Shown here: piece by piece, positions 13,273 through 63,848 of the stretch
Numbering within the stretch: the first letter of the stretch is position 1
How the letters are laid out: each line of letters opens with the position of its first letter
From: an uncultured Candidatus Saccharibacteria bacterium
GTDB lineage: Bacteria; Patescibacteriota; Dojkabacteria; GCA-002793355
NCBI GenBank assembly: GCA_964525295.1
Contig: CAZGEO010000002.1
Coordinates: 65,230 to 129,229, forward strand
Length of the DNA stretch: 64,000 nucleotides
Direction of reading: 5' to 3'
Made by a program: the position numbers and the translations under genes
Notes under the pieces: generated by a model
The model's input: only the letters and a program-made list of their open reading frames with translations
The model's database searches: none
What the model was told of the DNA's origin: nothing

Positions 13273-15075
13273 CTAAAAACGTTCATTTAATGCTAAGTGC
13301 GCTACTGCAACAAGCCTTAATGCATCTAGTTCGTATTCATTTATTGGTACTTTGACGATTATTTGCTCAAGTTGTCTCCAATACGTTTCAAATAATTCTG
13401 GGCGCAACGCTTTATTACATAAACCTGCAGCAGTCTCTAAAATGCTTATTCGGTATGCTTTTTCGACATTAAGTACTTTTTCAAAAAAATTGTTTGCGTT
13501 AAACCACGTTGGGTGAATCTCGTTTTTTGCTGAAATTTTATAGGTAGCAAGGGCAACAGTATCGCTATTCCGCGATTCATTCCAAAGTTGTTCGGCAAGT
13601 TCGGCACGCTCCGCGTATTTTGGTGGCGCATATTGCATAAAGTGTTCCGTATTGCCCGTGCGTATCAATTGAATGAATTGTGCAATATGCGTGTGATTTT
13701 CATGTTTCATGGTATTGGTGTATTTCGCAATATCCTGGAAGTCAAGTGGTTCTGGTAATCGTTTGTACCGATTGTTTTGAAGTTGTAACTTCTTATCGTA
13801 TTTTTTGAAAAGTGAGTCTCGGCTTCTTGCAATATTTTTTCTAGTCTGAGCGTATGGTTCTTGCGTATATTTTTGTTGTAATTCATGCGCAATTGCGTAG
13901 TAAATTTTTTGGTCAAAATAGGGCACGAAACGCGACAGAATTACAGCTACTTCGTTTGGATTAGGGCAGATATCTTGTAAAAGTACAGCAAGATATTTTG
14001 CTCGATGTGAATCGAGCTCTTTTTTGGTAAATAATCTGAGAACTGGGGCGGGGGGTGGGGCAAGGCGTCGTAATGATTTTGCCGTAAGCATTATTTCGAT
14101 ATCTACAGGAGTGATCTCTTTGAATGGAGTTCTCTGCAGGCTGTATGGCGCAAAATCGCTGAAAAATACTAAATCGCCGGCATCTGCAAAGCCATATTCA
14201 GAGTCTTTGAAGAATTGTTGATTGTGTGAAGAGGCTTCATCGTATACTGCGCCGGCCTTTAGTAAATGAATCACCGTTTTTGCAACGTGTGCAAAACCAT
14301 TATCTCTAATTAATTCTTTTGCATGTGCAGGAATCATTTCACCTCTGACTCGTACCCGTGGTACTCGTTTTTCACCAGGTGATAGTGAGCCTAATGTGAC
14401 TACTTTCGGTAGTTCATCTTCGCGAAAAGCCTTCGGCTTTTCGCGTACTTTTCTGAAACGCTCATACAAATTGGCTAATCTTTCATTAAGTACGGGTAAT
14501 TCTGCTATGGCAAAGGGTATATGAAATTTTCTATTTGCAAGAAAATTTGTTGTGGTTTCGCTTTGCCAGGTATGAGTGTTCCCGATGATTGCTAGGGCAT
14601 TGATCATTTCGAACAAAGCTTCTTCTTCATACAATGCGCCGGCAACACGTGGATGGGCAGTAGATTCCATGAAAAGTTCCATAGGTTTTATTGGATATGC
14701 AAATCCAGCACTATCTAGCTCCTCTCGTTCAAGTGTAACGTCATTCCCGTCACCTTTAACTGTTACTGTGAGTTTTGTGTTCTTGTCGATGACAATTTTG
14801 TGTGAACTGGATCTACCTTCTCGGTGAACTTCCCCTTTTTTTCCTTTTCGTGTTGGGGCAAGAAATAGTATTGGCGTGAGTTTTGCCACAACTGTGGCTA
14901 ATCCATTAGCGATTTCTTTAGGAAATCCTGCTATTTTTAAATCTTCGCAATAATTCCTTTTGTAGGCTTCAATTGTTTTTTCGCTATCTTTAGGTTTAAT
15001 ACGACCTGTATATAAAGAATTGCGTTTTGATGATAACTCCGGGAGATTTTCAAAAATAGGCGCCGGTATTGGCAT
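13273..15075 (-). CDS. Hypothetical protein, 600 aa
   Basis: Long ORF. No recognisable motif. Confidence 0.55.
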   Translation of the reverse strand: MPIPAPIFENLPELSSKRNSLYTGRIKPKDSEKTIEAYKRNYCEDLKIAGFPKEIANGLATVVAKLTPILFLAPTRKGKKGEVHREGRSSSHKIVIDKNTKLTVTVKGDGNDVTLEREELDSAGFAYPIKPMELFMESTAHPRVAGALYEEEALFEMINALAIIGNTHTWQSETTTNFLANRKFHIPFAIAELPVLNERLANLYERFRKVREKPKAFREDELPKVVTLGSLSPGEKRVPRVRVRGEMIPAHAKELIRDNGFAHVAKTVIHLLKAGAVYDEASSHNQQFFKDSEYGFADAGDLVFFSDFAPYSLQRTPFKEITPVDIEIMLTAKSLRRLAPPPAPVLRLFTKKELDSHRAKYLAVLLQDICPNPNEVAVILSRFVPYFDQKIYYAIAHELQQKYTQEPYAQTRKNIARSRDSLFKKYDKKLQLQNNRYKRLPEPLDFQDIAKYTNTMKHENHTHIAQFIQLIRTGNTEHFMQYAPPKYAERAELAEQLWNESRNSDTVALATYKISAKNEIHPTWFNANNFFEKVLNVEKAYRISILETAAGLCNKALRPELFETYWRQLEQIIVKVPINEYELDALRLVAVAHLALNERF

Positions 15076-17296: not shown

Positions 17297-17302
17297 AGGG
17301 TT

Positions 17303-17358
17303 TCAATAAATTTCTAGCCTTACCACCCATTCCCCGTTTTCAATTTTCTAGGTAAGTA
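17303..17358. repeat. Copy A of a 56-bp imperfect direct repeat; the partner copy is at 19660-19715
   Basis: 48 of 56 nt are identical to 19660-19715. Copy A is a decayed duplicate of the 3' end of the minus-strand gene 19660-20670, with a stop codon in frame. Confidence 0.7.
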
Positions 17359-17383: not shown

Positions 17384-19435
17384 ATGCATGGTGAGAGCAA
17401 ACGCGTAGAAAATAGAGATCGTGAAGCTACTAAAGAAACAAAAAATATAGTTCGTGATAGCAGGGTTTCTGAAGCTTTGAGTATTTTTCATGACAAAAAA
17501 GCATCTGCAGAACAATTAGAAAAAGCTTGTAGACTACTAGCATCGCCGGATTTATCATTTTTGAGAGAAGATTCTCTTCTTCAACGCCGAGATTGTACAG
17601 ATGTGCATAAGAGAAATTTACAAGATAAAATTCGCCAAAAATTTGATACTGCACAAATTATATATAGCGGAGAATATTCACCGTTAGTTCCGATTTCCGA
17701 TGACCAAGTAATCTCACGGAATATCAAATTTTCGAGTAAAATTAGAAGTCTCGGTTCATATAACATTGAAAAAGATAGAATCACACTAAATAGTAGTTTA
17801 GCGATTGAACAACAAAACTTTCCAACACTCCATCAATTAAGACTCACAGCAACAATAATTCATGAAGAAGAGCATCGCAAAAACTTTAGTAGACGTGCTT
17901 TGGGGCGATTATGTATTATAGAATCTAATGATAAGCAAAAAGAACCACACGTATCGCAACGTGATTTGGTTGTGCCAGAAAAGTTTTATAAGGCCTCCCG
18001 ACAGGTACTTTCTTGGATAGATGAAATTGGTGCATACTTGAGTGAAGTCGATATGTCAGATTATGGAGACTTTGCAGAGTATCTCAAAATGCTTAAGGAG
18101 CACAAACGATATACTGACACCGATGCGCCAAAGGCTGGCACTCTTGAGGTTTTAGTTATAACAATTGCTGCTGGTAAAGAAATTGGTGTGCAACCAGTAG
18201 ATATTCTTGAGCAATTGGTAACTCGTTATCAAATATACGAGAGATTACACCTTTCACCGCAATTGACCAGTGCACTTTTGCTCAGGCAAGCAGAAAGTAT
18301 CGTAAGATCAGAAGCCAAAAAAATTGGGAGAACAGAAGAATTATCAGAATTAGGGAAACGATATATCCTTCGTGGGCAGGTCAAATATTTACTTGCAAAT
18401 GCCTTAACAGCAGAAGCATTGCAAGAGGTTGGAGAAATGTTGGAGAGCAAACAAAGTTATGAATTAATTGCCCCTGAGGGGAATCTCGCTGCAAAGGTCT
18501 ATTTTATTCCCGATATGTTTAAATCAAGGTCTAATATTCCATCACGATATCAGCCTGCATTTGTTTTAAAGAAAATGACTGATGATAAGGGCGAATCTTC
18601 GCAATTCGGAAATTATCGCTTGTCATTACGATACTTTGACCCAACAACAGGGGGAAGTTATGTTGTTCCATCTAGAAATATCGAGTCGTTACGAAGTGAC
18701 GAATTTCAGAATGCTTTTAAAGATTTTGTTAAAACTTTACCAAATGAGCTTGTGAGCGATCTCTTGCGTAGTGCAAATTCATCAAGTGTTTTGCAAACAC
18801 ATCTGCATAGTTTAAGTGAGACATTGAGCGATCAATTCATTATGGAATTGAATATACAGCACGGTCTTGCATTTGAACGGGCGAAAGAGATACTTGCGAC
18901 GCGACAGCAGAATCGAAAGAGAACAAATTTTAGTCAAGCTATGAAGTTGCTACAAGAAGAATTGCTCGAAAAAGAATATGTCGCAGCACAACGACCGACA
19001 TATTTACCCGTTAAAATTTCAAGAATGAGCGAAAATGAAATGGGAAGTGTCACTACGATTGCATTGAGAAATCATTCAATTCAAGGAGTACCGTATGATG
19101 CTGCTGCGGTTGTTACTATACCAAATAAAGAATATCTTGACGCTGGTAAGTTATCTATAACGCTTGCATCAGTCGAGAAAGTACCCAATGAGGAAAGATT
19201 AAGGCAGGTTGCAAAAGCAATTATTGATTCACTTCCACACGTGACCAGGCAAGCGATGTCGTTAAATTATAGAGCAGGGAATTTTGAATTACCTCGAGAT
19301 GTTCAAGACACTCATGGTAGGCTGGTTAGCGAGGTAAGAAAGTACTTAGAAGAGCTTGGTTATGCAGTAATTGCTGGGGCAAAACAGAAAAGAATAATTA
19401 CCATTGCTGATTGGTTTAGTAAGTATGTTAAGTAG
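17384..19435 (+). CDS. Hypothetical protein, 683 aa, containing an HEEEH (HExxH-type) motif
   Basis: Long ORF. TATIIHEEEHRKN is a possible zincin motif, but the evidence is weak. An extended -10 TGgCATAAT at 17370-17378 ends 5 nt before the ATG. Confidence 0.55.
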   Translation: MHGESKRVENRDREATKETKNIVRDSRVSEALSIFHDKKASAEQLEKACRLLASPDLSFLREDSLLQRRDCTDVHKRNLQDKIRQKFDTAQIIYSGEYSPLVPISDDQVISRNIKFSSKIRSLGSYNIEKDRITLNSSLAIEQQNFPTLHQLRLTATIIHEEEHRKNFSRRALGRLCIIESNDKQKEPHVSQRDLVVPEKFYKASRQVLSWIDEIGAYLSEVDMSDYGDFAEYLKMLKEHKRYTDTDAPKAGTLEVLVITIAAGKEIGVQPVDILEQLVTRYQIYERLHLSPQLTSALLLRQAESIVRSEAKKIGRTEELSELGKRYILRGQVKYLLANALTAEALQEVGEMLESKQSYELIAPEGNLAAKVYFIPDMFKSRSNIPSRYQPAFVLKKMTDDKGESSQFGNYRLSLRYFDPTTGGSYVVPSRNIESLRSDEFQNAFKDFVKTLPNELVSDLLRSANSSSVLQTHLHSLSETLSDQFIMELNIQHGLAFERAKEILATRQQNRKRTNFSQAMKLLQEELLEKEYVAAQRPTYLPVKISRMSENEMGSVTTIALRNHSIQGVPYDAAAVVTIPNKEYLDAGKLSITLASVEKVPNEERLRQVAKAIIDSLPHVTRQAMSLNYRAGNFELPRDVQDTHGRLVSEVRKYLEELGYAVIAGAKQKRIITIADWFSKYVK

Positions 19436-19659
19436 TAGTGCTAACGATGTTCGCTTTATCGAGGCTCTCAGGTGGAAGTTGATAACGTGACGTTGTTTGT
19501 ATAATTCCCCGAAGAAACTTGTAGAATATACTGCTAAATGTATTGTTAAATTACAATATTACGTTGTTGAAGTACTTCGACATTATTGAATCCTTGTACC
19601 CCTATAAAGAAAATAGTTCATATTCTTGACACATATGGCGAGAAAAATTCAACGACGTC

Positions 19660-19715
19660 TTAATAAATCTCCACCCTTACTACCCATTCCCCGTTTTCAA
19701 CTTTCCAGGTAAGTA
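19660..19715. repeat. Copy B of the 56-bp direct repeat, forming the authentic 3' end of the gene 19660-20670
   Basis: Encodes the C-terminus TWKVENGEWVVRVEIY of the minus-strand gene. Confidence 0.7.
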
Positions 19716-35034: not shown

Positions 35035-36045
35035 CTATCTCTTTCTGAGTTTGTAAACGCGAGCTTTTTTACCAGAAACGAGAATATCGAAAATCTGTTC
35101 AGATTCAAAAATTTGCTTGAAATCTTTAGTTAGAAATTCATTCATCAGGTCTTTCTGTGCAGTTAGCAATATCAGCACGCCATTAGTGGCCAATACGCGA
35201 GAAGCTTCTTGTAGAAAATCAAAATAAAGTCTGCCAATTCCTTCCATCTTTTCGTAAATTCCCCAGGGCGGATCAGTAACGATTTTTGTGATACTTTCGT
35301 TTCCTATTTGTTCTAGCTTTTTCGCGTTACCTTCTATTACATCAAAATCACGAGGCTTTTTGGAAGTAGAAATCTTATAAGTAATTTTTGAAATGTCGGT
35401 ATCAAGAGCAATGATTCTTTTGTAATCAAATGATCGCGCTCGCTTTAGGGGGATTGCACCAGTGCCGCAGAAAGGGTCCAAGAATACATCGCTTTTATTT
35501 GGTTCCGAGAGTGCGCATAACAGATAGCATAATTCTGGCGATAATTCACCTTTTTCTAATTCCTGTTTCTCTCCTGGTTTTGATAACTGAAGCCCGGCGT
35601 AGCAGGCACCATCATCTCGACGAAGTAGTTGTAGTTCTGTATCGGCCGCGTTTCTGTTGATCGTAACATTTCTCAGGCGTAGTAAGCGGGCTTCAATTTT
35701 TTCGACAATGAATCGATTAACGCTAACTGAAATATTCTTGTCTGAAATTCGCAACCGAAGGATCGTCCTTTTTCCTTTGAGGATCGCTTGCACTTTCGCG
35801 TCTAACGATGAATCTGCAGAAACTACTGTAAGAAATTCCTCTAATTTTTGATTCGGTCGATAGTGAAGTTGCACATAAGAATTATTCAAAAAGGGCAAGG
35901 TGGTGATTCGTTCGACCGGCAGTTTACTGTCATAAACGATAAATCCTTCTGCAAGCTTGAGAATAGTTACCTTAGGGTCCTCTTTTTTGATAAGTTCTGC
36001 TGCTAACTCTTGTAGCCCAGTAATAAGTGTTGAAAAATATACCAT
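35035..36045 (-). CDS. THUMP-domain RNA methyltransferase (an N2-guanine or N6-adenine class enzyme of the Trm14/RlmL type)
   Basis: DPFCGTGAI motif I and the DPPWG catalytic motif. The N-terminal region is THUMP-like. Confidence 0.7.
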   Translation of the reverse strand: MVYFSTLITGLQELAAELIKKEDPKVTILKLAEGFIVYDSKLPVERITTLPFLNNSYVQLHYRPNQKLEEFLTVVSADSSLDAKVQAILKGKRTILRLRISDKNISVSVNRFIVEKIEARLLRLRNVTINRNAADTELQLLRRDDGACYAGLQLSKPGEKQELEKGELSPELCYLLCALSEPNKSDVFLDPFCGTGAIPLKRARSFDYKRIIALDTDISKITYKISTSKKPRDFDVIEGNAKKLEQIGNESITKIVTDPPWGIYEKMEGIGRLYFDFLQEASRVLATNGVLILLTAQKDLMNEFLTKDFKQIFESEQIFDILVSGKKARVYKLRKR

Positions 36046-37861: not shown

Positions 37862-38070
37862 TTTCCTTCTTCTCTTCACTTCTCTACATTTTTATTAAAG
37901 CCTTCCTTTTCGCTACCGAAAAAGAACTTCTTTTTCGGCTCACGCTCAACCAGGCTTTATTCTTGGCGTTTCGCGCAGACAATAAATGCCGAGAGAAGTG
38001 AAGAGAAGAAGGGGATAGGGGATGTGAGGAGTCGAAACCCAAACGAGACAACAACAATTTGTTGTCGAGA
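37862..38070 (+). ncRNA. Structured element trailing tRNA-Leu: a 21-bp perfect long stem (37865-37885 / 37992-38012), inner hairpin CCGAAAAAGAA/TTCTTTTTCGG and hairpin GACAACAACAATTTGTTGTC
   Basis: It shares the 24-nt exact motif AGACAACAACAATTTGTTGTCGAG and the 13-mer ACCGAAAAAGAAC with the element trailing tRNA-Ser. The long stem is kept by different sequences in the two copies. Confidence 0.5.
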
Positions 38071-38284
38071 GCAGGGCGAGGTTACGCCTAAAATCCTTTC
38101 AAAGTTCAATGTTCAATTTCAGTGACGAAGCATGAGTCCTGAAATTGTTGGGGAACCGACTCCTCTCTCATCACCTTACTAATGCTGTTCGTTCACTACC
38201 GAAAGAACTGCTTCTTTCGTTTTACCGCTCGATAGAGTAGATCTTGTGTGAAGTCTCGCAAAAAGAATACAGAAATATTGAATG

Positions 38285-53646: not shown

Positions 53647-56600
53647 TTATTTCATCGGCCATTCCTTAATTAAACCATCAATCTCTTTCATAACCCTATC
53701 CGTATTTACTAACGCAACAATGATTTTCTGATAATGTAAAACTTCATCAAAACTCAATTTGCGACCTTTTCTATCTTTTAGCCATTTTTGAGCAGGTTGG
53801 TATCCACCAATATAAAATTCCCATGCAATTTTAGGAACACTATCAAAGTATTGGGTATCATTTATCCAAACCTTGTTTTCTGAATATTTTGGATTTATTA
53901 CTTCGTTTTCACCTGCAACTGGATATTGTGTTACCAATGAACTGCTGTTTGCATGTTCCATTAAATGATATTGCCTAATTTCTCGACCTTTTTCGACGAG
54001 TGACCAGAATAGCTTTTGATTTGATGTAAATGGAATTCGTGGGAAATCTATTTTCAGGAATTCTTTATATCGTTCTCGATATGTTGGAGAGTGAAGTATT
54101 GCGTAAATATAATCAAGAACATCTAGAGGATTGAATGTTCCTTCTTTGCCAGAGTCTGCGTGTTCGTGGTCAGGGATAAAATTGAGTTTTAGTTTACTTG
54201 CAATATGGTCAATAAATCTTTGATTTAAGTTCGGATGACGTCTTGTAGTGTCAAGTTGCGAATCAGTGTAAATGTATAGTGGAAAATTCATGGCGTTACT
54301 ACCAGTATTTCCAGATAAGTAAATCGCTTCAGAAATACTAGTTGTAATGAATGCATGGGCAAAGGAACTATCCTTCAGTGCTTTAGTCGTAAGTAATCCA
54401 ATATTGTTGCCTTTTACATAGTTTTGCATTATTTCAGTTCGCCATCTCCATAATACTTTGTTATCAAAGTATGTATATTTCTTCTCAAATGGTCTGTAAG
54501 CAATCGCCATTGTTTTTTCTGCATCAATTGCGATAGTGTTCTTATTTTGGATAATCCATTTTGCATAGTTCTTTCCCAAAGTATATTTGGTTCTAAAGGT
54601 TGTTTCGTCGTAATCAGTATTTTGTAAATCCTTTAATCGTGAAATGATTGATTCTTGATTATCAGAAATTGCAAATGAGTCACCCATTGTTACAATCCCT
54701 GAGACATTCCTATTAAAGATTGAGTCAATACGTATATAATTTTTATACTCGCCTTTTAGCTGATTGTCCTTGTACACGAAAAAGTATTCAGGCGATTGAT
54801 AGTCGAGTCTGGTCCATTGAATGCTTCCAATATTGGATTTATTTAGAACCGAATATTTTGAATCTCTTTTTCCAAATAAGTCTGCATGATTAACTTCAGC
54901 TAGTGTTTTTTTTGTTTTTTTACTTTTTATAAAAAAGTTTATACTGACCCCTTGCATTATATCGAATACGTTTTCGTCTTTTGTTCCATCAGGGGAGGTT
55001 TCTTTCTTCTTAGTATTTCCGTGAAGGTCCAAGATATAAATTTTATCGAATGTTTTAAGTAGGTGATTACGCATACCTCTAAACGTTGGATTGTCCAAAA
55101 AACCGTGATTGTTAATATACGCGATAATACCTTCCCCATTTTTCTCAATAAACCATTCTGCAAAGCGAATAAACTTTACATAGTCATCTTGAAGCCAATG
55201 CTTCTTTTCGCCAAAATGCACACCATCAACATATTTATAATTCTCGATCAGTTTTGTTATCCATTCTCCGTTATTTGAAGAAACACCGCTGTATGGAGGA
55301 TTACCCATGACAACCATGATTGGTTTTTCCTTCTTAACTTCGTTTGCTTCCATACTTTCAGTCGTTAACCACTGCGAAAGCATATCTTGTTGGTGAGCTC
55401 CGGGTTCTTCTAGCGAATTTGTAAGATAAACGCCGAGTCGTTTACCTTTTCCTTTGGTTGCTTCATAGCCAGTTTCGGCCAAGGTAATATCCAATTTTAG
55501 ATGAGCCATTGAGTAGCTTGCCATCAAAATCTCAAACCCGTGAAGTCTTGGGAGTAAATGTTCGTCAACGTAAGATTGCCAGGCGCCCGCTTGCCCAGTA
55601 AACCGAGTTTTGTAAATATGTTTAATAATGTGGTCCAAAAAGGTTCCGGTTCCAGTTGCTGGGTCAAGAACCTGAACTCGATGTTCAGATACTTTTTGTT
55701 TCTTCTTTGAGCCTTGTAATTCTTTTTCGACCTCGATCTTGCTTGTATCTGCGAGTCCATCGGCAATACCGAACTCAGTTTTCAATATGTCATCGACAGC
55801 ACGTACGATGAAGTCAACCACAGGCTCTGGGGTGTAATAGACGCCTCGAGCCTTTCGCATTTTCTGATCGTATTCTGCAAGGAATGTTTCGTAGAAGTGT
55901 ACGATTGCATCGGTTCGTTTTGTTTCTTTTCCGAAATTCTCGAGTAATTCACGTACATTTACATGATTAAATAGTTCCGCAATATCGTCGACAATCCAAA
56001 TAATTCGTTCATCAATATTGTAACCTGCAATTGTTTGGAAGAAATTCCTCAAAAATGGATTTGACTTAGGCAAGAGATTATTGGCTTCGTCACGAGTAAA
56101 AGTATCTAAGGAAGAATCATGGTAACGGGCTGCAAACATGCCGTAGGCGACTGTTTGAGCATAAATATCCGAGTATTGCTCAAGAGAAAGGTCACGAATT
56201 AATAATTGTTTGAAGACATCGAACTGTTGTTCGAGTGGCCCTTTCTCTGCAGTTACCTCGCTTAATGAGAGATATATTACATTCTTAAGCATTTTTGCCT
56301 TCTCAGCCATTAACGACGCTAACTCCTTTGGACTACGAATTGTAATAGATTTCTTCTGTGTGAAGTTGGTTAATACAGAGTCGAGTAGGGGAATATTCTC
56401 AGGAATAATCTCGATATTTCCGTTTGTTAGACGGGCAATTTCAATTCTTTGAACTTCAACCCCATTCAGAAAGAATCTATAATCAAGGTAGTTAGTGAAG
56501 CAAAGGTTGTTTAGAGAAGCTTTGTATCTATTAAATTGATTTTTCGTTTTGAATTCTTTGTCTAGATCGACGTCAATGTCTTTCGCTTCGATATACCCAA

Positions 56601-56796
56601 TTGGTGTCTTACCTTTTAATATTACAAAATCAGGTGCTCCAACTTTCTGTTGCTTCGGGTCGTTTACTGCATTAATGCCAGGGTTTAGTGTTTCTACAAG
56701 CGTTTCTAATGCTGGGCGGTAGGCGTGTTCACGTGCGTGACCGGTTTTGAATGTTTTAATGACTTCGTCTAAATATGATTGAACTGTGTTAGACAT
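53647..56796 (-). CDS. Type IIG restriction-modification enzyme of the MmeI family
   Basis: N-terminal PD-(D/E)xK region GHAREHAYRPALETL...PDFVI...GYIEAKD. SAM-binding VLDPATGTGTFL. N6-adenine MTase motif IV VMGNPPYSG. A C-terminal target-recognition region. Length 1049 aa. Confidence 0.8.
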   Translation of the reverse strand: MSNTVQSYLDEVIKTFKTGHAREHAYRPALETLVETLNPGINAVNDPKQQKVGAPDFVILKGKTPIGYIEAKDIDVDLDKEFKTKNQFNRYKASLNNLCFTNYLDYRFFLNGVEVQRIEIARLTNGNIEIIPENIPLLDSVLTNFTQKKSITIRSPKELASLMAEKAKMLKNVIYLSLSEVTAEKGPLEQQFDVFKQLLIRDLSLEQYSDIYAQTVAYGMFAARYHDSSLDTFTRDEANNLLPKSNPFLRNFFQTIAGYNIDERIIWIVDDIAELFNHVNVRELLENFGKETKRTDAIVHFYETFLAEYDQKMRKARGVYYTPEPVVDFIVRAVDDILKTEFGIADGLADTSKIEVEKELQGSKKKQKVSEHRVQVLDPATGTGTFLDHIIKHIYKTRFTGQAGAWQSYVDEHLLPRLHGFEILMASYSMAHLKLDITLAETGYEATKGKGKRLGVYLTNSLEEPGAHQQDMLSQWLTTESMEANEVKKEKPIMVVMGNPPYSGVSSNNGEWITKLIENYKYVDGVHFGEKKHWLQDDYVKFIRFAEWFIEKNGEGIIAYINNHGFLDNPTFRGMRNHLLKTFDKIYILDLHGNTKKKETSPDGTKDENVFDIMQGVSINFFIKSKKTKKTLAEVNHADLFGKRDSKYSVLNKSNIGSIQWTRLDYQSPEYFFVYKDNQLKGEYKNYIRIDSIFNRNVSGIVTMGDSFAISDNQESIISRLKDLQNTDYDETTFRTKYTLGKNYAKWIIQNKNTIAIDAEKTMAIAYRPFEKKYTYFDNKVLWRWRTEIMQNYVKGNNIGLLTTKALKDSSFAHAFITTSISEAIYLSGNTGSNAMNFPLYIYTDSQLDTTRRHPNLNQRFIDHIASKLKLNFIPDHEHADSGKEGTFNPLDVLDYIYAILHSPTYRERYKEFLKIDFPRIPFTSNQKLFWSLVEKGREIRQYHLMEHANSSSLVTQYPVAGENEVINPKYSENKVWINDTQYFDSVPKIAWEFYIGGYQPAQKWLKDRKGRKLSFDEVLHYQKIIVALVNTDRVMKEIDGLIKEWPMK

Positions 56797-56933
56797 AGGG
56801 GAATTATATGCCGAAAGCTTGGAAATGGCTAGGATTTTGTAAAAAGACGTGGGAGGATTTCACTACTCACTTTGCCCCCACCAAGAATTCGCCCTCCATT
56901 TGTTTCGCTCGTTGGGGCTCACTGTTTCATTTT

Positions 56934-59231
56934 CTAAATAGTGTTGGTTATGGAGGGGCCAGCTGACATATTCCATATGTCTTTAACGAAATTGTCAATA
57001 TCGGATGGTAAAACCACTTTCTTCAGCATTGGCAAGATGTTGTCGTTATAATGAGGTGATGAGGTCGATAGTTCATCTCTCCAATTCCATACTTTGGAAA
57101 CAATTTCTAAACCATCTAAATATTTCTTATCAATAAAATCTTTATACTTAATTTTGTATTCGCTATCATGTTTTTGGAGGAAACTTTTAATAAATTCGAA
57201 AACTGAATTATATTTATTATGTGTGAGAACCCCAATGTAACTAAGATATATTGCTGATTTGGGCTCGTCTGTATGCAAATCTGCGGCATGAAGGTGCTTT
57301 TCAATCATGTAAGTTAGAGTCTTTACGCTTTTCATAATAGTATCCTCACTATGATTATCAATGATTAATTTTATTGCAATGAATGTAGTTAACTGGAAAT
57401 ATGCTTCAATATTACTGAATTTCTCTTTTGGAATAATAAACCACGAGGAAAGGCTTGAATAGTCATTAATCAAGCGGTCAATATTTGAGATGTAATCAGG
57501 TTTTTTAATATTCGATCTAACTAAAAATAAAAGTTGTATCAGCTGTATTAAGTATTTACCTACGAGACTAAGAATATCAGAGTAAATATCAGTGGTCTCA
57601 CGGACATAGGACCTAAGGGAGAATGCCAATTCTTCATAAAAAGTTAATGCATTTTCTAGTACCTGTTCACTTTTAAGCGCATTTTTCGCAATTGATGTAT
57701 AAACGGAATTAATTAGCCACATATTGAAAATGTAAATGAACATACTATGATATGCACTTCCTCTTTTTACTTGCTGAATAAAGTCAGTGTATTTAAAGAA
57801 TAGTTTCAGAAAATCCGCTATGTTCGATTTCGCTGTAGAAATTGGTACAAAGAGAGATGCATTTAATGTAAATACAATAGTTTTAAAAACAGTTTGAACT
57901 ATTATTTGCTGTTCGTGTGTAATACCCCATTGAATTATTTCTTCTAATGATTCAATGACATTCGGAGCCAACAACTGATCTCTGTAACCAACAGTTTGAA
58001 TGGAGATGTTGTTTAATGAAACTTCTGCTTGATAAATGGATTCAAGGTTATTTGAAACAAGAATTTCTGATATTAGTGTCTTAAAGTAATGAAAGATTTG
58101 AAATGAAATGGGATTATCACCTAGCAGATCGTTTTTTCCATAACTTAATTTCAGTGATTCTAAAACTAGGCTTTCGTAGGTTTTAATCACACATCTCATA
58201 CTAGTTTCCTTTTGAGCAATCAGAAGCCTTTTTGCGAATCTGTTGAAATCTTCAAAGAAGTTCATGAACAATTCTTGGCTATCGCTATTAAATGTCAGCA
58301 GCCCATCCTTTGCTAACTCTTTTGATGAATTCCCTTTTCTTAACTGCAGGTACTGGTATAAAATTCTTGCTACTGAATCAATAGCTTGATTCGTTTGGAA
58401 ATCCTTCTGTTTTTCTGACAATTGTGTCGCAATCTCTATCATGCCTTGAAGGTTATCAAAAAGATATTTGAAATTTGTTTTTTCAGCAGAACCATAAACG
58501 AACTTGGTGATTTCTTCATTAGAGTAGTTGCTGTTTGCACTAATTACTTTTATGAAATGCTCAGCATCAATTTTGATTGTTTTTAATAGATTGCTACACT
58601 CATTTTCTAAATACTTGATTGCATTAGTTGGATTAACTTTCTGTGAGGTAGATTGGTGTAAGAAATCTATCAATATAAGAGCAAGAGTAATTAAAGAGAT
58701 TGCTGTAGCAGTAAAGAGTTTTATCCATGCTAAGTAAGTAGTGGTACCAGAAGTGAGAAAACCAATAAATAGAAAAAGTATAGTTATCGTTGCAAGATAC
58801 CTATAAATCTGTTGGTCACGTTTATCATGAATATACTTTTCGTAAAAAGAGCTAGACTGCAACTCATTTACACTTTGCTGAAGAAAATTGGTAAGAGAAT
58901 ATACTATTGCGATGATACCACCCATCATGCTACCTATTGCGAAATATCCGTTTGATAATGCCGAATAGTTTTCAAAGACAGGAAAATAAAAATATGTAAG
59001 AAACGAAAGTGTTAAACCAATAATAATTATTGTAATTCTAATAATATTCCGTGAATTCAGATCCCAAATTGAAATTGTTAGCAACCATCGCGATCTGGTT
59101 TTGTATAAGAATACCAAAAACTTAGCTCTTATTGATTTAACAAATATCTGTGCCGCGGATATTAGTGTTTTAATCCTAGCTATGATTTGGTTTTTTGATT
59201 TTTCGCGAATTGTTTTAATTGTGTTGGACAT
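56934..59231 (-). CDS. Hypothetical membrane-anchored protein, 765 aa
   Basis: Four or five N-terminal TM helices are followed by a roughly 560-aa predicted alpha-rich soluble domain. No recognisable motif. Very AT-rich. Confidence 0.55.
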   Translation of the reverse strand: MSNTIKTIREKSKNQIIARIKTLISAAQIFVKSIRAKFLVFLYKTRSRWLLTISIWDLNSRNIIRITIIIIGLTLSFLTYFYFPVFENYSALSNGYFAIGSMMGGIIAIVYSLTNFLQQSVNELQSSSFYEKYIHDKRDQQIYRYLATITILFLFIGFLTSGTTTYLAWIKLFTATAISLITLALILIDFLHQSTSQKVNPTNAIKYLENECSNLLKTIKIDAEHFIKVISANSNYSNEEITKFVYGSAEKTNFKYLFDNLQGMIEIATQLSEKQKDFQTNQAIDSVARILYQYLQLRKGNSSKELAKDGLLTFNSDSQELFMNFFEDFNRFAKRLLIAQKETSMRCVIKTYESLVLESLKLSYGKNDLLGDNPISFQIFHYFKTLISEILVSNNLESIYQAEVSLNNISIQTVGYRDQLLAPNVIESLEEIIQWGITHEQQIIVQTVFKTIVFTLNASLFVPISTAKSNIADFLKLFFKYTDFIQQVKRGSAYHSMFIYIFNMWLINSVYTSIAKNALKSEQVLENALTFYEELAFSLRSYVRETTDIYSDILSLVGKYLIQLIQLLFLVRSNIKKPDYISNIDRLINDYSSLSSWFIIPKEKFSNIEAYFQLTTFIAIKLIIDNHSEDTIMKSVKTLTYMIEKHLHAADLHTDEPKSAIYLSYIGVLTHNKYNSVFEFIKSFLQKHDSEYKIKYKDFIDKKYLDGLEIVSKVWNWRDELSTSSPHYNDNILPMLKKVVLPSDIDNFVKDIWNMSAGPSITNTI

Positions 59232-59372: not shown

Positions 59373-59416
59373 GGGGTTTCGGTCACCTTGCGGAAGTTTT
59401 GTTCACTTCGTTTCAC
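59373..59416. repeat. Copy 1 of a 44-bp direct repeat; the partner copy is at 62756-62799
   Basis: About 40 of 44 nt are identical, with the core CGGTCACCT(T/C)GCGGAAGTTTTGTTCACTTCG. It overlaps the stop codon of the Abi_C gene. Confidence 0.7.
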
Positions 59417-60195
59417 ACGGTATTGATCGTGCCTTTAATTGAGAGTGGATTGAAGTGATGAAAGTCTAAGATGAAGATCCCAAGAGATCCGCAAAGGTTA
59501 ACTGCAAGCTCTGCATATTTTGGATCGGTTATTTCTACACCAGCAATTTGTCCGTGTCTATTTCCATCACTGTTTGAAAGTGTAGACAGAGCGTTTACTA
59601 TTGATGCAATTCCCTTTATGAACTGGTGCTCGTTTTGATAGTCAGCGATATTTAATCCCACCGCTTGTTCGGTATCCTTGAGTAATTCTGATAATTCACC
59701 CGTATATTTATTGGACATACCTCTTTCGTTCAATATTGTTCTACATAATGTTTCCAACATTGTTCTAGCACTGGTAATAGCTTCAGCAGGATTTGAAATA
59801 ATCTTATTGCTTGCGGTTATCCAGTCTTCTCTATAAGTATTTTCCATTAGATGAGAAAACTTCAATCCAATTGGATTGGAGCCGAAAGGAGCATAAAGGA
59901 CTTCGGTTAAGTAATGAATTTCTTGAGGTGTGGGATAGGAATACTTCATATCTAAAGGGGTTTTTATAAGTGTGTCTAGAGCATAAAACTGTTCCTTTGC
60001 TGGAAGACTAAGTATTACCTCAGTAAAAAGTTCTTCCCTTTTGGGAGTTATTGAATACGCTGTTAAAGGTTTAATACTTTTTGAGTAGTTAGTTGAGAAT
60101 GAAAGGATTTCCTTAAGAGAAAATCCTTTGCCCGCACCTGCAAAATACGATGCAAAAATTTCGATTCTTGCCCGTTCAAGTTTTTCTATAGCCAT
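59413..60195 (-). CDS. Abi_C-like abortive-infection C-terminal-domain protein
   Basis: TMLETLCRTILNERG and NALSTLSNSDGNRHG resemble the conserved Abi_C motifs. Confidence 0.5.
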   Translation of the reverse strand: MAIEKLERARIEIFASYFAGAGKGFSLKEILSFSTNYSKSIKPLTAYSITPKREELFTEVILSLPAKEQFYALDTLIKTPLDMKYSYPTPQEIHYLTEVLYAPFGSNPIGLKFSHLMENTYREDWITASNKIISNPAEAITSARTMLETLCRTILNERGMSNKYTGELSELLKDTEQAVGLNIADYQNEHQFIKGIASIVNALSTLSNSDGNRHGQIAGVEITDPKYAELAVNLCGSLGIFILDFHHFNPLSIKGTINTV

Positions 60196-60199
60196 AGTG

Positions 60200-61003
60200 T
60201 TATTTGATTAGATCCCATTTATTTAGATAATAGCTCATATCGTTCTCCTTTTTCCCGATATATGGCTTTTCTTCATTGAATTTTATGGCGACTGCATATC
60301 TAGATTTATCTTTCATTGTAAATATGTACTTTTCAGTCACTAATTTCTCTACGACATGAGCAGGAAGAATCATATAATTGTCCGAACTATCACCATGAAG
60401 TACAAAGACATAGAAGATGTTGCTTTCGTTATAGCGGTCAAAAGAAGCCTTTCTAATCGTTAAGGGGTAGGTGTTAACCTTATTAAGGTTAGAAGTCTTT
60501 ACCTGTATTCCATAAAATTTTGCCTTTTTCGTTGCGACTATATCAAGTCCGACATCGACAGACATGATACTTGCATTGAATCCTAGAAATAAAAGTTTGG
60601 AGCAGACCAAGTGTTCTCCACCCTTGCCTGTGTAGCCACTCTCAAGCTTCTCTTTCGCTTCAAGTTTCTGGAGTTGCTTTGCCGCTTTGTCTGTTTTGGA
60701 AATCTTTACATCGTCATTAAGAATGTAAAGTCCCTTATCATTTCGTTTGAAAGTTGCGTTATCTCCATTTAATTTGATATCGACAGTAATTACTGCACTC
60801 ATTGTGTTTTCGGGGCGTTTTGATCCAGTTACAAGTAAACCTTTTTCAAGTGCCAGTTTTGTGATCTGCAAAACAGACAAGCCATCTTCATTTTGGCGCA
60901 ATATTTTAGTTGCGGCCTCTTTGTAAGCATTCATATTGGAATTATATTCTTTTCCTGTTTCGGTTGCTATGATTACTGGAACCTGAGAGAATATCTGCGG
61001 CAA
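60200..61003 (-). CDS. Mrr-like restriction endonuclease (HARE-HTH N-domain plus Mrr_cat PD-(D/E)xK domain), a putative Type IV enzyme
   Basis: N-terminal AATKILRQNEDGLSVLQITKLALEKGLL...FKRNDKGLYIL matches the HARE-HTH/Mrr_N domain. C-terminal GGEHLVCSKLLFLGF...SVDVGLDIVA...GIQVKT follows the Mrr catalytic pattern. Confidence 0.6.
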   Translation of the reverse strand: MPQIFSQVPVIIATETGKEYNSNMNAYKEAATKILRQNEDGLSVLQITKLALEKGLLVTGSKRPENTMSAVITVDIKLNGDNATFKRNDKGLYILNDDVKISKTDKAAKQLQKLEAKEKLESGYTGKGGEHLVCSKLLFLGFNASIMSVDVGLDIVATKKAKFYGIQVKTSNLNKVNTYPLTIRKASFDRYNESNIFYVFVLHGDSSDNYMILPAHVVEKLVTEKYIFTMKDKSRYAVAIKFNEEKPYIGKKENDMSYYLNKWDLIK

Positions 61004-61104
61004 TTCTTGAATTAGAGCATCTGCAAGCTCTCGAACTCCCTAAAGTTGCCAATCACCCCCCAAAAGTTTATACTCAACGGCAAATATATAAAAAATTACA
61101 AAAA

Positions 61105-61977
61105 ATGAAGCCTAATCCTTTCTTTTTAAAGTTAATTATTATAATTACACTGACGATAGTTGTTTATACCATTGTTGCAGTTGTTAATTTATTTCTCCCC
61201 CCTAAACGCCCGGGTGAATTACTCTCTTTAGAAAAGGCCTGTTCGTTAGAGTCAAAGGGGAAACGGGTAACAGTAGATGGTTTTCTTAGACTAAATAGTA
61301 AAGTTGTGACTTGTAGATCAACCTCGTGTAATATGATTTTTTCGGAATATCCATCAATCTTTGAGCTCGATGGAAGTGAAGTTGTTGTGTGGGTTACCGT
61401 GGGAGACGATAATAATGAGGCTGTTGACTACCCGAAAGGTATATACGTTACCAGTACTTTCAAAGTAAAAACTAATACAGGTGAAATACTAACGAACGAG
61501 CGTGTGAGAATAACAGGAAGAGCGAGGACGGGCAAGGATTTCTGTGAATTGGATATTGATTTAATTGAAAGGGCTCCCGAACCAGTTGCAAAAGAAGTTG
61601 CCCTTGAAAACCTGTGTAACGATGACCTCGACCGAGAAAAGATTTCTTTTTCAGGTTTCTTACGTCCATCGAAAGACGGGTTGAGCGCTATTGGTTATAC
61701 TGATCTTTCTGTGAGTGCCAAAGCAAGCGGTGGAACAGAGTATATGATTAATTTGCCAATTAAGGCTACGAACCGAGAACAAATAAAGCCCAAGTATCCA
61801 ATGCTTTATCCTGAAGGGACTATGTTTTCGGGTGAAGTCATTTCGCTCAATATTGGCGAAGACAAGGTAGTTGAGATAAAGAATAAAGAATTCAAGTTCG
61901 AGGCCTACCAGTACAAAATTCAAAAAGATCAGGAAAAGAAGTGTTATGTGTTGGTTGAGAGGATTGAGGAGATGTGA
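61105..61977 (+). CDS. Hypothetical membrane-anchored protein with two internal repeats of about 100 aa
   Basis: N-terminal TM helix. Repeats begin RVTVDGFLRLNSK... and KISFSGFLRPSKDG.... Confidence 0.5.
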   Translation: MKPNPFFLKLIIIITLTIVVYTIVAVVNLFLPPKRPGELLSLEKACSLESKGKRVTVDGFLRLNSKVVTCRSTSCNMIFSEYPSIFELDGSEVVVWVTVGDDNNEAVDYPKGIYVTSTFKVKTNTGEILTNERVRITGRARTGKDFCELDIDLIERAPEPVAKEVALENLCNDDLDREKISFSGFLRPSKDGLSAIGYTDLSVSAKASGGTEYMINLPIKATNREQIKPKYPMLYPEGTMFSGEVISLNIGEDKVVEIKNKEFKFEAYQYKIQKDQEKKCYVLVERIEEM

Positions 61978-62096
61978 GGGGAAAATCTGGATCGACGGCT
62001 TTATTCGAAAAGCTTTGTGATTGAAATGGTGCAATGGATTATAAAGAATTTTAAACTTTGGTAGAATAAGTACTAATTGGAACTTTATATAAATAA

Positions 62097-62720
62097 TTGC
62101 GTATGTCGTTAAATTTGCTGGTGTTAGGCGTATTTGATTTACTTATTGTTTGCTATGTAATCTTTCTGATTCAGCAAGCGATTGCATTCAAAGCAAAATA
62201 TGGATATTTATGTGAGGCAAGTGGCCTAGGTGAAGTCAAAAATGCTCAATATAAAACTTACAATCTAGGTTATTTCCTGTTTGGCTTTATAAGCCTGGCT
62301 TTTACATATAATTTGCATCAGATACTTATTCCAGGCGTAATTACAAATATTGCGATCGCGTTAGTGTATATTGCAGGTGTGGCACTTTGTTTGATTGCAG
62401 TATTCCCTCGCGATACCTTCCATACTGAGCATACGTTAGCGAGTACTGTAATGTTTTTTTGTGCTGTTATATCTATGCCTCTACTGGTAATTCCGTTTTT
62501 ACAAACGCCTGCAATCTCAAGAGCAATTGTTCCATTTAACATCATTATCCCCGCATTGTTGCTGTACTATCTTTTCTTGAAATTCAAAAATTTTAAAAAA
62601 TATGGAGAAATTGATAATGAAATGGAGCGGTATGTGAGTATCTGGGAATGGATACCCTTTATATCTGCGTATTGTTGGTTCTTTGCATTAAATACAGTAA
62701 TTATATTGAGGCTTTTGTAA
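62097..62720 (+). CDS. Hypothetical polytopic membrane protein, 207 aa
   Basis: Five or six predicted TM helices. No recognisable motif. Confidence 0.5.
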   Translation: MRMSLNLLVLGVFDLLIVCYVIFLIQQAIAFKAKYGYLCEASGLGEVKNAQYKTYNLGYFLFGFISLAFTYNLHQILIPGVITNIAIALVYIAGVALCLIAVFPRDTFHTEHTLASTVMFFCAVISMPLLVIPFLQTPAISRAIVPFNIIIPALLLYYLFLKFKNFKKYGEIDNEMERYVSIWEWIPFISAYCWFFALNTVIILRLL

Positions 62721-62755
62721 GGAAAGTTATTATTTGTTTGTTCCTAGCATTAAAG

Positions 62756-62799
62756 GGGGATTCGGTCACCTCGCGGAAGTTTTGTTCACTTCGCTTCAA
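62756..62799. repeat. Copy 2 of the 44-bp direct repeat
   Basis: Matches copy 1 at 59373-59416. Confidence 0.7.
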
Positions 62800-62825
62800 A
62801 ACATCACGCTCCTCGACCCCCGGTT

Positions 62826-62989
62826 CGCTCGACAACAAATTGTTGTTGTCTTACTCCCGCTTCGAATCCCACAACATTTTTTATCTTTTCCTCTCCTAAT
62901 TACTCCGTTTTTGTTCTTTTTCGGTTCCTGACCGTAACGAAAAATAGCGGTGCTGTTTTGCGTAGGGAAGGAGAGAAAAAGATAAAAAC
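62826..62989 (-). ncRNA. Structured element trailing tRNA-Ser: long stem (62877-62896 / 62970-62989) and hairpin GACAACAACAATTTGTTGTC at 62829-62849
   Basis: Same architecture as the element trailing tRNA-Leu, with the same 24-nt motif and ACCGAAAAAGAAC 13-mer. The T-loop-like fragment TTCGAATCCC matches tRNA-Ser's own T-loop. Confidence 0.5.
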
Positions 62990-63076
62990 GGAGAAGGCGG
63001 GATTCGAACCCGCGATACCCGTAATGGGTATACTCCCTTTCCAGGGGAGCCCTTTCAACCACTCAGGCACCTCTCC
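62989..63076 (-). tRNA. tRNA-Ser(GGA), a type II tRNA
   Basis: Minus-strand cloverleaf with acceptor GGAGAGG / CTTCTCC. Anticodon stem CTCCC/GGGAG with loop CTGGAAA. Long variable arm TACCCATTACGGGTA. T-arm GCGGGTTCGAATCCCGC. Confidence 0.85.
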
Positions 63077-63098
63077 AAAGTTTTCTTAGTGTTGTGAA

Positions 63099-63848
63099 TT
63101 ATACCTTATGCTTAAGAAAATCGGTAACCTGCGAAATTACCTCATCTTTCTTGCTGAACATAAGATCGTGCCCGTCGTTTTCAAACGTTATTACGCGCTT
63201 ATTAGGCACTCTTTGTAAAAGTTTCAGCTGTTGTTTATATGGAAGTAGTACATCTTTTTTTCCAAGGAAGACAAGTTTTTCAGTTGCATCAGTCTTTTCT
63301 AGGGGAATTGTGAAATCTTTTGTAAGCATGTGCCCTTGTTGTTGAATTTGTGACATGGCTGGTAGTGAATCCTTAAGCTTTTCTAAAAAAGGTTGCAGGT
63401 CTTTATTGGGGCGAACTTTCCCTTTCACATAATTTATGGTCACTTTTGCAGCAAGTTCGGCTTGGGTGCAAGGAAAGGTAGTAAGCACAGGTGCGAATAG
63501 AACACTCTTCTTAATAAGTTTTGGGGTAGTGGCTGAAAGTGCCAGTGCAATTCCTCCGCCCATTGAATGCCCAATTACAGAGTTTTCTTCGAAATCAAAA
63601 TGTTTTACAACCGTTTGCATATATTCAACGTAATAGGGGATTGAGATTGGTACTGTAGGTGACGTTTTACTCGAAAAACCGGGCGAGTTTATTGCAATGA
63701 CGAGAAAATGTTGTGCTAGTGCGCGAAAAAACGAGCCATAGTGAGAAATTTCTGCTCCTCCACCGGGAAAAAAGAAGACAGGATCTCCGCTCCCGTAGGT
63801 TTCATAATTAACTTCAAGTTTTTCGGGTGTGGTAATTGTAAGAAACAT
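63099..63848 (-). CDS. Alpha/beta-hydrolase fold protein
   Basis: Nucleophile elbow GHSMGG (GxSxG) and an N-terminal HGxGG-like oxyanion region PGGGAE. Confidence 0.75.
   Translation of the reverse strand: MFLTITTPEKLEVNYETYGSGDPVFFFPGGGAEISHYGSFFRALAQHFLVIAINSPGFSSKTSPTVPISIPYYVEYMQTVVKHFDFEENSVIGHSMGGGIALALSATTPKLIKKSVLFAPVLTTFPCTQAELAAKVTINYVKGKVRPNKDLQPFLEKLKDSLPAMSQIQQQGHMLTKDFTIPLEKTDATEKLVFLGKKDVLLPYKQQLKLLQRVPNKRVITFENDGHDLMFSKKDEVISQVTDFLKHKV

Follow-up and report, generated by a model that had tools for sequence, protein, structure and literature searches.

Introduction

Insertion into a tRNA gene, with the 3′ end of that gene rebuilt, is textbook behaviour for kilobase-sized islands that carry an integrase. 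A regenerated tRNA gene together with a displaced 3′ fragment is an established signature of integration into tRNA genes (PMC4383910), displaced tRNA fragments at integration sites have been reviewed (PMC9897764), and an attB site in the T-loop is known for phage Ms6 (PMC1762012). Here we describe the footprint of a gene-less element of ~200 nt that lies behind tRNA-Ser in a 64,000-nt stretch of DNA (hereafter the window; contig CAZGEO010000002.1, positions 65,230 to 129,229) from an uncultured Candidatus Saccharibacteria bacterium that GTDB places in the Dojkabacteria. The copy at tRNA-Ser is probably (we estimate a probability of about 0.7) one complete member of a family of small, non-coding, non-autonomous insertion elements found at the 3′ sides of tRNA genes in Dojkabacteria and related Patescibacteria.

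Like Islander-type tyrosine-integrase islands and prophages, the element leaves the tRNA gene intact and has a direct copy of the tRNA 3′ end at its far end (PMC4383910). As at T-loop sites such as that of phage Ms6, the block of identity runs from the T-loop to or past the discriminator base (PMC1762012). Repeated insertions stack at one tRNA gene, as they do in tRNA islands. Unlike such islands, members of this family are 130-310 nt long, contain no gene and have no integrase in their neighbourhood. What they conserve is a core that folds into covarying stems, not a set of arm-type binding sites; they contain an internal segment complementary to the target, and their copies stand behind five tRNA species.

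Folded single-stranded recombination sites include the attC sites of integrons and the attP(+) hairpin of the CTX phage. There too, two inverted segments ~100 nt apart form an imperfect hairpin that recreates a target-like duplex, structure is conserved above sequence, and arrays pile up at one site. The core sites of attC read RYYYAAC and GTTRRRY. We found neither these core sites nor an intI/attI platform: the paired ends of the element read GGGATTCG ... CGAATCCC, and the window holds no integrase. Unlike attC and CTX sites, the element is accompanied by no IntI gene or dif-like site that we could see, and its junction repeat measures at least 18 nt rather than ~7 nt. The attC and CTX sites fold as DNA; here the folded form may be DNA or RNA.

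Miniature inverted-repeat transposable elements (MITEs) and derivatives of IS200/IS605 are likewise small, structured and multi-copy, and depend on an enzyme made elsewhere. IS200/IS605 derivatives read their cleavage and target sites through base pairing with an internal guide; in our element, too, an internal segment pairs with the element end and with the target. Unlike MITEs, the family has neither terminal inverted repeats nor a short fixed target duplication, and its left ends are unrelated. Its only inverted pair, formed by the segments called anti-T and T-copy below, is internal on the left, and its duplications span 18-33 nt. Unlike IS200/IS605, a long stretch of the target is duplicated.

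Short and long interspersed nuclear elements (SINEs and LINEs) share with this family a conserved 3′ end, a variable 5′ end, target duplications of variable length, the presence of truncated copies and an association with tRNA genes. Casposons, too, insert at tRNA 3′ ends, with a duplication of 14-15 bp. Unlike all of these, the present element has yielded no reverse transcriptase or Cas1 and has no terminal inverted repeats, and some of its copies start with a terminator-like structure. We know of no SINE-like element in a bacterial host. The element is thus a tRNA-integrating island by footprint, yet without the integrase that defines that family; it is not a MITE, and by sequence it is not an attC site. 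Our search of the literature found no description of such elements in Patescibacteria. If the element is mobile as such, trans-acting machinery in Patescibacteria would recognise folded nucleic acid together with tRNA T-arms, and part of the turnover of gene content beside tRNA genes in these small genomes would be explained.

Limits and setting of the element behind tRNA-Ser

The tRNA-Ser(GGA) gene of the window encodes no CCA. After its acceptor strand (CTTCTCC) comes the discriminator G at 62989, which places the first base of the trailer, and with it of the element, at 62988. The original prediction had begun the element at the base next to the discriminator and had taken it for a second copy of an element trailing tRNA-Leu, and both claims agree with what we find. 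A 23-mer (GACAACAACAATTTGTTGTCGAG) occurs in the window only at 38047-38069 (+) and 62828-62850 (-), with a chance expectation of 0, and covariance models match both copies.

The other end had been misplaced. The element had been drawn to stop at 62826, abutting, 27 nt further on, copy 2 of a direct repeat said to bound a defence cassette. The repeat is real (59373-59415 and 62756-62798, 43 nt, 93% identical) and the 27-nt spacing is correct, but those 27 nt belong inside the element, and repeat copy 2 is the element's own 3′ tail rather than a separate neighbouring feature. Two copies in a related genome (L001, described below) conserve the supposed gap, and their similarity to the Ser copy continues through it and through all of repeat copy 2. 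Moreover, a covariance model built from three copies matches positions 62750-62873 of the window over its full length (149 bits), and model matches as a whole cover 62750-62877 from end to end. Taken together, the full-length match and this similarity place the element at 62756-62988 and make the repeat its tail. So read, it is a non-coding feature of ~230 nt on the minus strand, without an open reading frame (ORF) of note. By itself, the element has a more stable fold than shuffled sequence (z = -3.9 for RNA, -4.1 for DNA).

The window is a chromosomal piece with a G+C content of ~39%. Its genes include those for RNase J, MutS, L27 and TruB as well as carotenoid genes, and its L27 and local gene order match Candidatus Dojkabacteria genomes (for example, CP129470.1).

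Copies behind other tRNA genes

We scanned one genome per species with the short stem-loop that holds the shared 23-mer (hairpin 1; Table 1). The scan returned one true locus, in Patescibacteria bacterium BroJett019 (L001), and three chance matches without tRNAs. L001 holds two copies, one behind tRNA-Ser(CGA) and one behind tRNA-Arg(CCG). Scanning JGI metagenomes with hairpin 1 gave only two chance matches, in coding-like DNA, and viral contigs searched with three patterns gave no match. More distant members were sought in the related loci as a second copy of a tRNA's own 3′ end downstream of every tRNA gene, which revealed copies behind tRNA-Leu and tRNA-Glu in several Dojkabacteria.

Two covariance models were built, R1 from three copies and R2 from seven. 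R1 matches four copies (149, 144, 136 and 34 bits). R2 gave 17 matches above 30 bits in 387 kb, and each of the 17 immediately follows a tRNA gene, or a remnant of a tRNA end, on its 3′ side. Two further copies are present in L028. The family thus includes copies behind tRNA-Ser, tRNA-Leu, tRNA-Arg and tRNA-Glu, representing five different tRNA species in about eight genomes of Patescibacteria and Dojkabacteria. Copies are ~130-310 nt long, and all are oriented as their tRNA.

The 5′ hairpins vary by subgroup and may be long with pyrimidine and purine arms, short, terminator-like with a U-run, or absent; left ends are unrelated between copies and subgroups. Judged by eye, the tRNA-Glu copies of L014 and L024 and both copies of L028 start with a terminator-like hairpin and U-run. 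The Ser copy does not qualify as an intrinsic terminator, as no terminator-like site was found at 62600-63200 of the window. Occupancy of tRNA-Leu, tRNA-Glu and tRNA-Ser is patchy across genomes, and the window's own tRNA-Glu is empty.

The sibling copy in the window, behind tRNA-Leu(TAG), has the same parts as the Ser copy (Table 1). Hairpin 1 is identical over 23 nt in these two copies, which are otherwise only loosely alike, and this identity points to a putative sequence-specific factor acting in trans.

Displaced tRNA 3′ ends and an empty site

Each copy stands between an intact tRNA gene and a displaced direct copy of the 3′ end of that gene, which we call the T-copy. In 10 copies the T-copy starts at the CGA of the T-loop, with an exact identity run of 8-21 nt; in the eleventh copy that we tabulated, behind tRNA-Glu in L028, it is degenerate. 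The identity run is long (16-21 nt) in six copies, including those behind tRNA-Arg in L001 (21 nt), tRNA-Glu in L014 (18 nt) and tRNA-Leu in L028 (19 nt). Where it is short, as it is in the copies of the window, the distal part has decayed. The T-copy of the Ser copy starts from the T-loop CGA and has decayed after 8 nt. In L011, the repeat extends ~15 nt beyond the tRNA end. The right-end motif CGNGAGGTGRS stands directly before the T-copy in 10 of the 11 tabulated copies; the Leu copy of the window reads TTGTTGGGGAAC. The two marks of a tRNA island, an intact tRNA gene and a displaced direct copy of its 3′ end at the far end, are therefore both present.

One pair of genomes provides an occupied and an empty site. 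L014 and L015 have one and the same L27 protein, and 2.1 kb of their neighbouring DNA is 96% identical. At tRNA-Glu, L014 has 183 extra nt relative to L015, made up of the element and an 18-nt duplicate of CGACTCCCCGTAGCGGCA, and L015 has a clean empty site. Two readings fit the sequences: the element may have inserted recently, or it may have been lost precisely between the repeats.

Could the copies be inert scars, that is, functionless leftovers of integrase-carrying islands or prophages after internal deletion? An intact tRNA gene with a displaced 3′ fragment is the standard signature of such islands (PMC4383910, PMC9897764), no mobility gene is present, and T-copies have decayed in older copies. 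We nevertheless regard this as very unlikely, for copies behind five tRNA species in about eight genomes share one multi-stem architecture, and its stems are maintained by compensatory changes (see below). Moreover, species with ~70% identity in their flanking genes share 31 nt of the tail without a difference, and the 23-nt hairpin is identical in two otherwise diverged copies.

Target-complementary segment and conserved fold

The complement of the T-loop and 3′ T-stem of tRNA-Ser recurs inside the element as a segment that we call anti-T, which is also complementary to the T-copy at 62756-62764. Pairing of anti-T with the T-copy, which supplies the 3′ strand, gives helix P1, and this helix closes the core. 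Anti-T tracks the T-stem of its own tRNA: it reads GGGAT at tRNA-Ser, GAGGAG at tRNA-Leu, GGGAA or GGGAG at the two tRNA-Glu types and CGGGAG at tRNA-Glu of L028. In 6 of 10 copies, anti-T pairs best with its own tRNA. The Arg copy of L001 combines a T-copy that perfectly repeats 21 nt of tRNA-Arg with the anti-T of the Ser(CGA) copy of the same genome, which leaves one G-U pair. In several copies, the T-loop part of anti-T reads GAGAA or TAGAA rather than TCGAA, which puts tandem G.A/A.G opposite CGA.

The 5′ module of the Ser copy is a long hairpin with a pyrimidine arm (62969-62988) and a purine arm (62878-62897) that form a 19-20-bp stem; its conserved interior is ACGGTCAGGAACCGAAAAAG. The Ser(CGA) copy of L001 and the copy in L022 have homologous long hairpins, in which the arm sequences differ but compensate. 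Within the module, a segment termed A′ is the complement of the tRNA's last 5 nt joined to the element's first 5 nt. Equivalents of A′ occur in the Leu copy (AAATGCCGAG), in both the Ser and Arg copies of L001, and in L022. The A′ pairing and the long hairpin are mutually exclusive and can only be alternatives. We also considered whether they might combine into one extended hairpin or pseudoknot, and rejected this arrangement as sterically impossible because the order is A-B...A′-B′ with no linker between A and B.

Table 1. Features of the Ser copy, its sibling behind tRNA-Leu and the adjoining cassette (window coordinates)
Feature	Position	Strand	Basis or remark
tRNA-Ser (anticodon GGA)	62989-63076	-	ARAGORN 62988-63077; Rfam tRNA 62989-63076, 57.9 bits
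5′ module, long hairpin from first base after tRNA	62878-62988	-	Folds; homologous hairpins elsewhere
A′ segment, AAAAACGGAG	62903-62912	-	Sequence reading
Anti-T segment, GGGATTCGAA	62861-62870	-	5′ strand of closing helix P1
Hairpin 1, stem GACAACAA/TTGTTGTC, loop CAAT, with adjoining CGAG	62828-62850	-	Hairpin itself 62831-62850
GGGGGTCGAGG motif, then P4 (GCG.GA / TC.CGC) around hairpin 2 (GTTTTG...CAAAAC)	62773-62821	-	
Conserved right end, CGCGAGGTGAC	62765-62775	-	Last bases of element proper
T-copy, CGAATCCCC	62756-62764	-	Displaced direct copy of tRNA-Ser 3′ end
Repeat copy 2	62756-62798	-	Hairpin 2 loop and 3′ half, right end and T-copy; inside element
Sibling copy behind tRNA-Leu(TAG)	37863-38167	+	Covariance model, folds, sequence reading
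Leu copy, hairpin arms	37865-37884 / 37994-38012	+	
Leu copy, A′	37984-37993	+	
Leu copy, anti-T	38026-38036	+	
Leu copy, hairpin 1	38047-38066	+	
Leu copy, T-copy, CGACTCCTCTC	~38157-38167	+	
Repeat copy 1, lone 3′ tail	59373-59415	-	Right end CGCAAGGTGAC 59382-59392; T-copy CGAAACCCC 59373-59381
Cassette between two tails, 3.3 kb	59416-62755		No recombinase encoded
AbiJ-like protein	59413-60195	-	Cassette; C-terminus PADLOC 1.3e-12, Pfam Abi_C 3e-9
HARE-HTH protein	60200-61003	-	Cassette
290-aa protein	61105-61977	+	Cassette
DUF998 membrane protein	62097-62720	+	Cassette

We measured covariation of P1 and hairpin 1 in an alignment of seven sequences. In this small sample, with helices taken from the family's own consensus, the two helices are 93.8% paired and score 0.56, compared with 0.21 for column shuffles (0 of 500 reach 0.56) and 0.07-0.17 with the partners slid. 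Six of the eight pairs of hairpin 1 have changed on both sides, and across the family its stem takes at least seven different sequences, all of which pair. P4 also pairs in all of its versions (GCG.GA/TC.CGC, ATAAC/GTTAT, GTAAC/GTTAC, CGAAAC/GTTTCG and CAATA/TATTG); its covariation is described from the sequences and left uncounted because two subgroups are shifted in the MAFFT alignment. Compensatory changes and a fold better than that of shuffled sequence are what would be expected of a structured single-stranded element. These numbers support, rather than finally establish, selection on the core structure.

The fold also has a preferred strand. Folding energy in the five short copies favours the tRNA-sense strand over the antisense by 8-18 kcal/mol, and the sense fold contains 4-6 G-U pairs, compared with 0-1 in the antisense. 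This bias suggests that a single-stranded sense form matters, which fits RNA and single-stranded DNA alike.

Against Rfam 15, only the tRNA passes, and the next-best matches are far below threshold, with permissive thresholds included. Hammerhead ribozymes, group I and group II introns, transfer-messenger RNA and tRNA-like structures were rejected, as none has a permissive Rfam match; by eye, the hammerhead core motifs are absent.

A structured trailer that serves the host in tRNA 3′ processing, termination or transcript stability, or that yields a small RNA from the precursor, would share several of these properties. The element starts at the base after the discriminator, its structure is conserved, its fold favours the sense strand, and some copies open with a terminator-like hairpin. 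We consider such a role very unlikely, since the element is present and absent at the same tRNA in close strains (L014 and L015) and patchy across tRNAs and genomes. In addition, a duplicate of the tRNA 3′ end, for which a trailer has no need, is always present, the Ser copy of the window is without a terminator-like site, and no Rfam family matches.

Possible modes of movement

We scanned 54 of the 57 long ORFs of the window, the other three all overlapping annotated genes, and found no integrase, transposase, HUH enzyme or reverse transcriptase. The called genes of ~400 kb of related loci likewise encode none of these four. An element that carries its own integrase is accordingly not what we see: no Pfam match to an integrase occurs in the scanned window ORFs or in the related loci. 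CRISPR-associated transposons that home at tRNA genes were also considered and rejected, as the window has no tnsB-, tnsC-, tniQ- or cas12k-like genes. The lack of a mobility enzyme in the window and the ~400 kb of related loci suggests that the mover acts in trans. The element would then be moved by an enzyme encoded elsewhere in the genome.

The mechanism that we prefer, tentatively and at less than even odds, is site-specific recombination within the T-loop at a folded site that imitates the target. Like a genomic island, the element would bring along the tRNA 3′ end from which the gene is rebuilt. Folding of its sense strand would make helix P1 a double-stranded likeness of the target, comparable to attC or the CTX phage site, and hairpin 1 would be a handle for a trans-acting factor. 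The excised circle would read ...GAGGTGAC joined to CGA, the tRNA 3′ end and the 5′ hairpin. The footprint, the strong prior for such events and a covarying fold in which P1 recreates the target duplex all favour this mechanism, though only to that tentative degree.

Several points weigh against an insertion element moved in this way. First, a precise deletion between the 18-nt repeats would mimic recent insertion, and the L014/L015 pair is not polarised. Second, tRNA-Glu copies occur in most of the sampled lineages and have diverged about as much as the genomes have, so that long residence with losses is possible. Third, the negative searches for a mobilising enzyme, in the window and in the related loci, count here too. 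Finally, the recombination mechanism itself meets three difficulties. A conservative recombinase needs the right tRNA 3′ end to be carried beforehand, a poor fit with the Ser-type anti-T of the Arg copy; a duplicated stretch that ends anywhere from 0 to ~15 nt past the tRNA is likewise a poor fit for such an enzyme; and a double-stranded circle of 130-300 bp is a poor substrate for a classical integrase.

Some of these features would be accommodated by copy-in with target duplication through a single-stranded intermediate, in which one cut or priming site would stay at a constant place in the T-loop while the other shifts. In one version, the trailer RNA would be reverse-transcribed by target priming, as a SINE is, while its T-copy or anti-T base-pairs with the target. 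Of the two ends, only the right one is conserved, the junction is fixed between TT and CGA, and the duplication varies in length (18, 18, 19, 20, 21 and ~33 nt, the last with one mismatch). The lone 3′ tails at 59373-59415 and in L014 resemble 5′-truncated copies, and the Arg copy joins a tRNA-Arg T-copy to an anti-T of the Ser (donor) type. Folding is sense-strand-specific and rich in G-U pairs. Moreover, several copies start exactly past the discriminator, where tRNA 3′ processing would free a trailer RNA. We still judge copy-in unlikely. Neither the scanned window ORFs nor the related loci encode a reverse transcriptase or transposase, and the two lone tails are nearly equal in length, which is unexpected from random truncation. 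Against the RNA version, the Glu copies of L014 and L024 and both copies of L028 open with a terminator-like hairpin and U-run, which would limit transcription running on from the tRNA promoter. To our knowledge, copy-in of this type has no bacterial precedent. The remaining weight falls to mechanisms other than T-loop recombination and copy-in.

The pairing segments raise one further idea, that of a nucleic-acid-guided mobile element that targets tRNA genes and spreads through a folded single-stranded intermediate, with anti-T and A′ as the guides that choose the tRNA. We hold this to be improbable. In one version, an RNA freed from the pre-tRNA by 3′ processing would be copied behind another tRNA by target priming, as a bacterial SINE-like element; in another, folded single-stranded DNA would mimic the duplex of the tRNA T-arm.

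Repeat tails and the adjoining cassette

Repeat copy 1 consists of the last 34 nt of an element and a decayed T-copy, and the stop codon of the AbiJ-like gene is supplied by the first three bases of this repeat copy. Upstream of it we found nothing core-like and no match to R1 or R2. On the simplest reading of the sequence, repeat copy 1 remains from an older sibling copy that was pushed away from the tRNA and mostly lost, leaving its tail alone. L014 shows a comparable arrangement without cargo: a diverged full copy, a 36-nt spacer and a lone tail, the last 31 nt of which are identical to window positions 62760-62790.

The DNA between the two tails encodes four proteins (Table 1). It had been described as a defence cassette delimited by the repeat. 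It is indeed bracketed by two element tails, but only the C-terminus of the AbiJ-like protein matches a defence family; the other three proteins gave no such match. A second assembly (L021) has the same arrangement. The cassette may be cargo of the older copy or a later arrival. The AbiJ-like protein had no relative but itself at E <= 1e-5 among 5.8 billion proteins, which left no other insertion sites to compare. The alpha/beta hydrolase at 63099-63848, beside tRNA-Ser, likewise had no relative but itself among the 5.8 billion proteins, at E <= 1e-20.

The original prediction had proposed that the element is a hotspot where accessory DNA lands. We find partial support for this. The cassette between the tails, and variable genes beyond the copies in L009 and L010, agree with it; other copies stand without islands, and tRNA flanks vary where there is no element. 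In a specific form of the proposal, compatible with an insertion element family, accessory DNA such as the AbiJ cassette would integrate at the element's tail or T-copy, used as a secondary attachment site. In its favour, a 43-nt repeat of 93% identity flanks the cassette and so ties the position of the cassette to the element family, and variable genes (the peptide deformylase gene def and a cupin gene) lie just past the copies in L009 and L010.

We find this form of the proposal unlikely. Relatives that carry the element with no variable DNA beside it, which would speak against a hotspot, were found in part, as both L001 copies adjoin ordinary genes (HD_4, NUDIX and HD). The Leu copy of the window is directly followed by a polyprenyl synthetase gene, and the lone tail of L014, behind its 36-nt spacer, has no cargo. 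The repeat is the element's own end rather than a feature of the cassette that happens to lie nearby, and the cassette encodes no recombinase. In addition, tRNA 3′ flanks change gene content without the element (L014 compared with L015; L020), and at tRNA-Leu the change falls exactly at the discriminator in genomes that have no element there. Successive insertions at one tRNA, with the cassette caught between them, fit at least as well as an element that attracts accessory DNA. The 43-nt repeat should thus not be taken for the defence cassette's own attachment site.

Just outside repeat copy 1, positions 53647-59231 encode a 1049-aa Type IIG restriction-modification enzyme and a multi-pass membrane protein of 765 aa that matches no family. 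This segment has the lowest G+C content of the window (0.34-0.37), and the variable region at tRNA-Ser may extend to ~53.6 kb.

Other observations at tRNA genes and in the window

Flanks of tRNA-Leu differ between close relatives. L014 and L015, which are of one species, have 45 nt (11187-11231) and 780 nt (11187-11966, one gene), respectively, beginning at the base past the tRNA-Leu discriminator, with no element. In L009, L010 and L013, a peptide deformylase gene (11208-11950) comes right after the tRNA-Leu element. In L011 that gene is absent: a deletion of 622 nt, with TG microhomology, has taken it together with the 3′ half of the element. We rejected excision as an explanation of this difference between L010 and L011, because the end points lie inside the element and the def gene and share only the TG microhomology.

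Past the T-copy of the window's Leu copy, positions 38180-38240 hold a second, partial copy of the interior of the 5′ hairpin (CACTACCGAAAGAACTGCTTCTTTCGTTTT). This segment is terminator-like and may be the original tRNA-Leu trailer or a remnant of an older element. The contigs of two independent short-read assemblies of the window species (L007 and L008) stop within tRNA-Leu, immediately ahead of the element, and the break is probably caused by the duplicated tRNA end or by the element. Assemblies break at these elements, and displaced tRNA fragments are open to mis-annotation. A strand bias relative to replication was considered and set aside: GC skew is positive throughout the window, and the Leu and Ser copies lie on opposite strands (n=2).

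In L028, a more distant relative, tRNA-Ser(CGA) at 13752-13843 encodes CCA and has no element; the tRNAs that carry elements are CCA-less. L014 has a tRNA-like gene at 19126-19215 (-; 32.7 bits) with a defective acceptor stem and the anticodon loop UUACCAA. Behind it comes GGTGCC joined to AGACCCACATGCTCCG, which resembles a decayed element end plus the end of a tRNA-Ser; an element copy follows. The junction of GGTGCC and AGACCCACATGCTCCG recurs in L022 without the tRNA-like gene.

Two observations concern other parts of the window. The UPF0020 methyltransferase gene at 35035-36045 (-) is missing in L008, which is of the same species and otherwise has the same gene order. Finally, a 59-nt direct repeat of 86% identity (17300-17358 and 19657-19715) flanks an ORF at 17384-19435 (683 aa, no Pfam match), which may be another bounded cassette.

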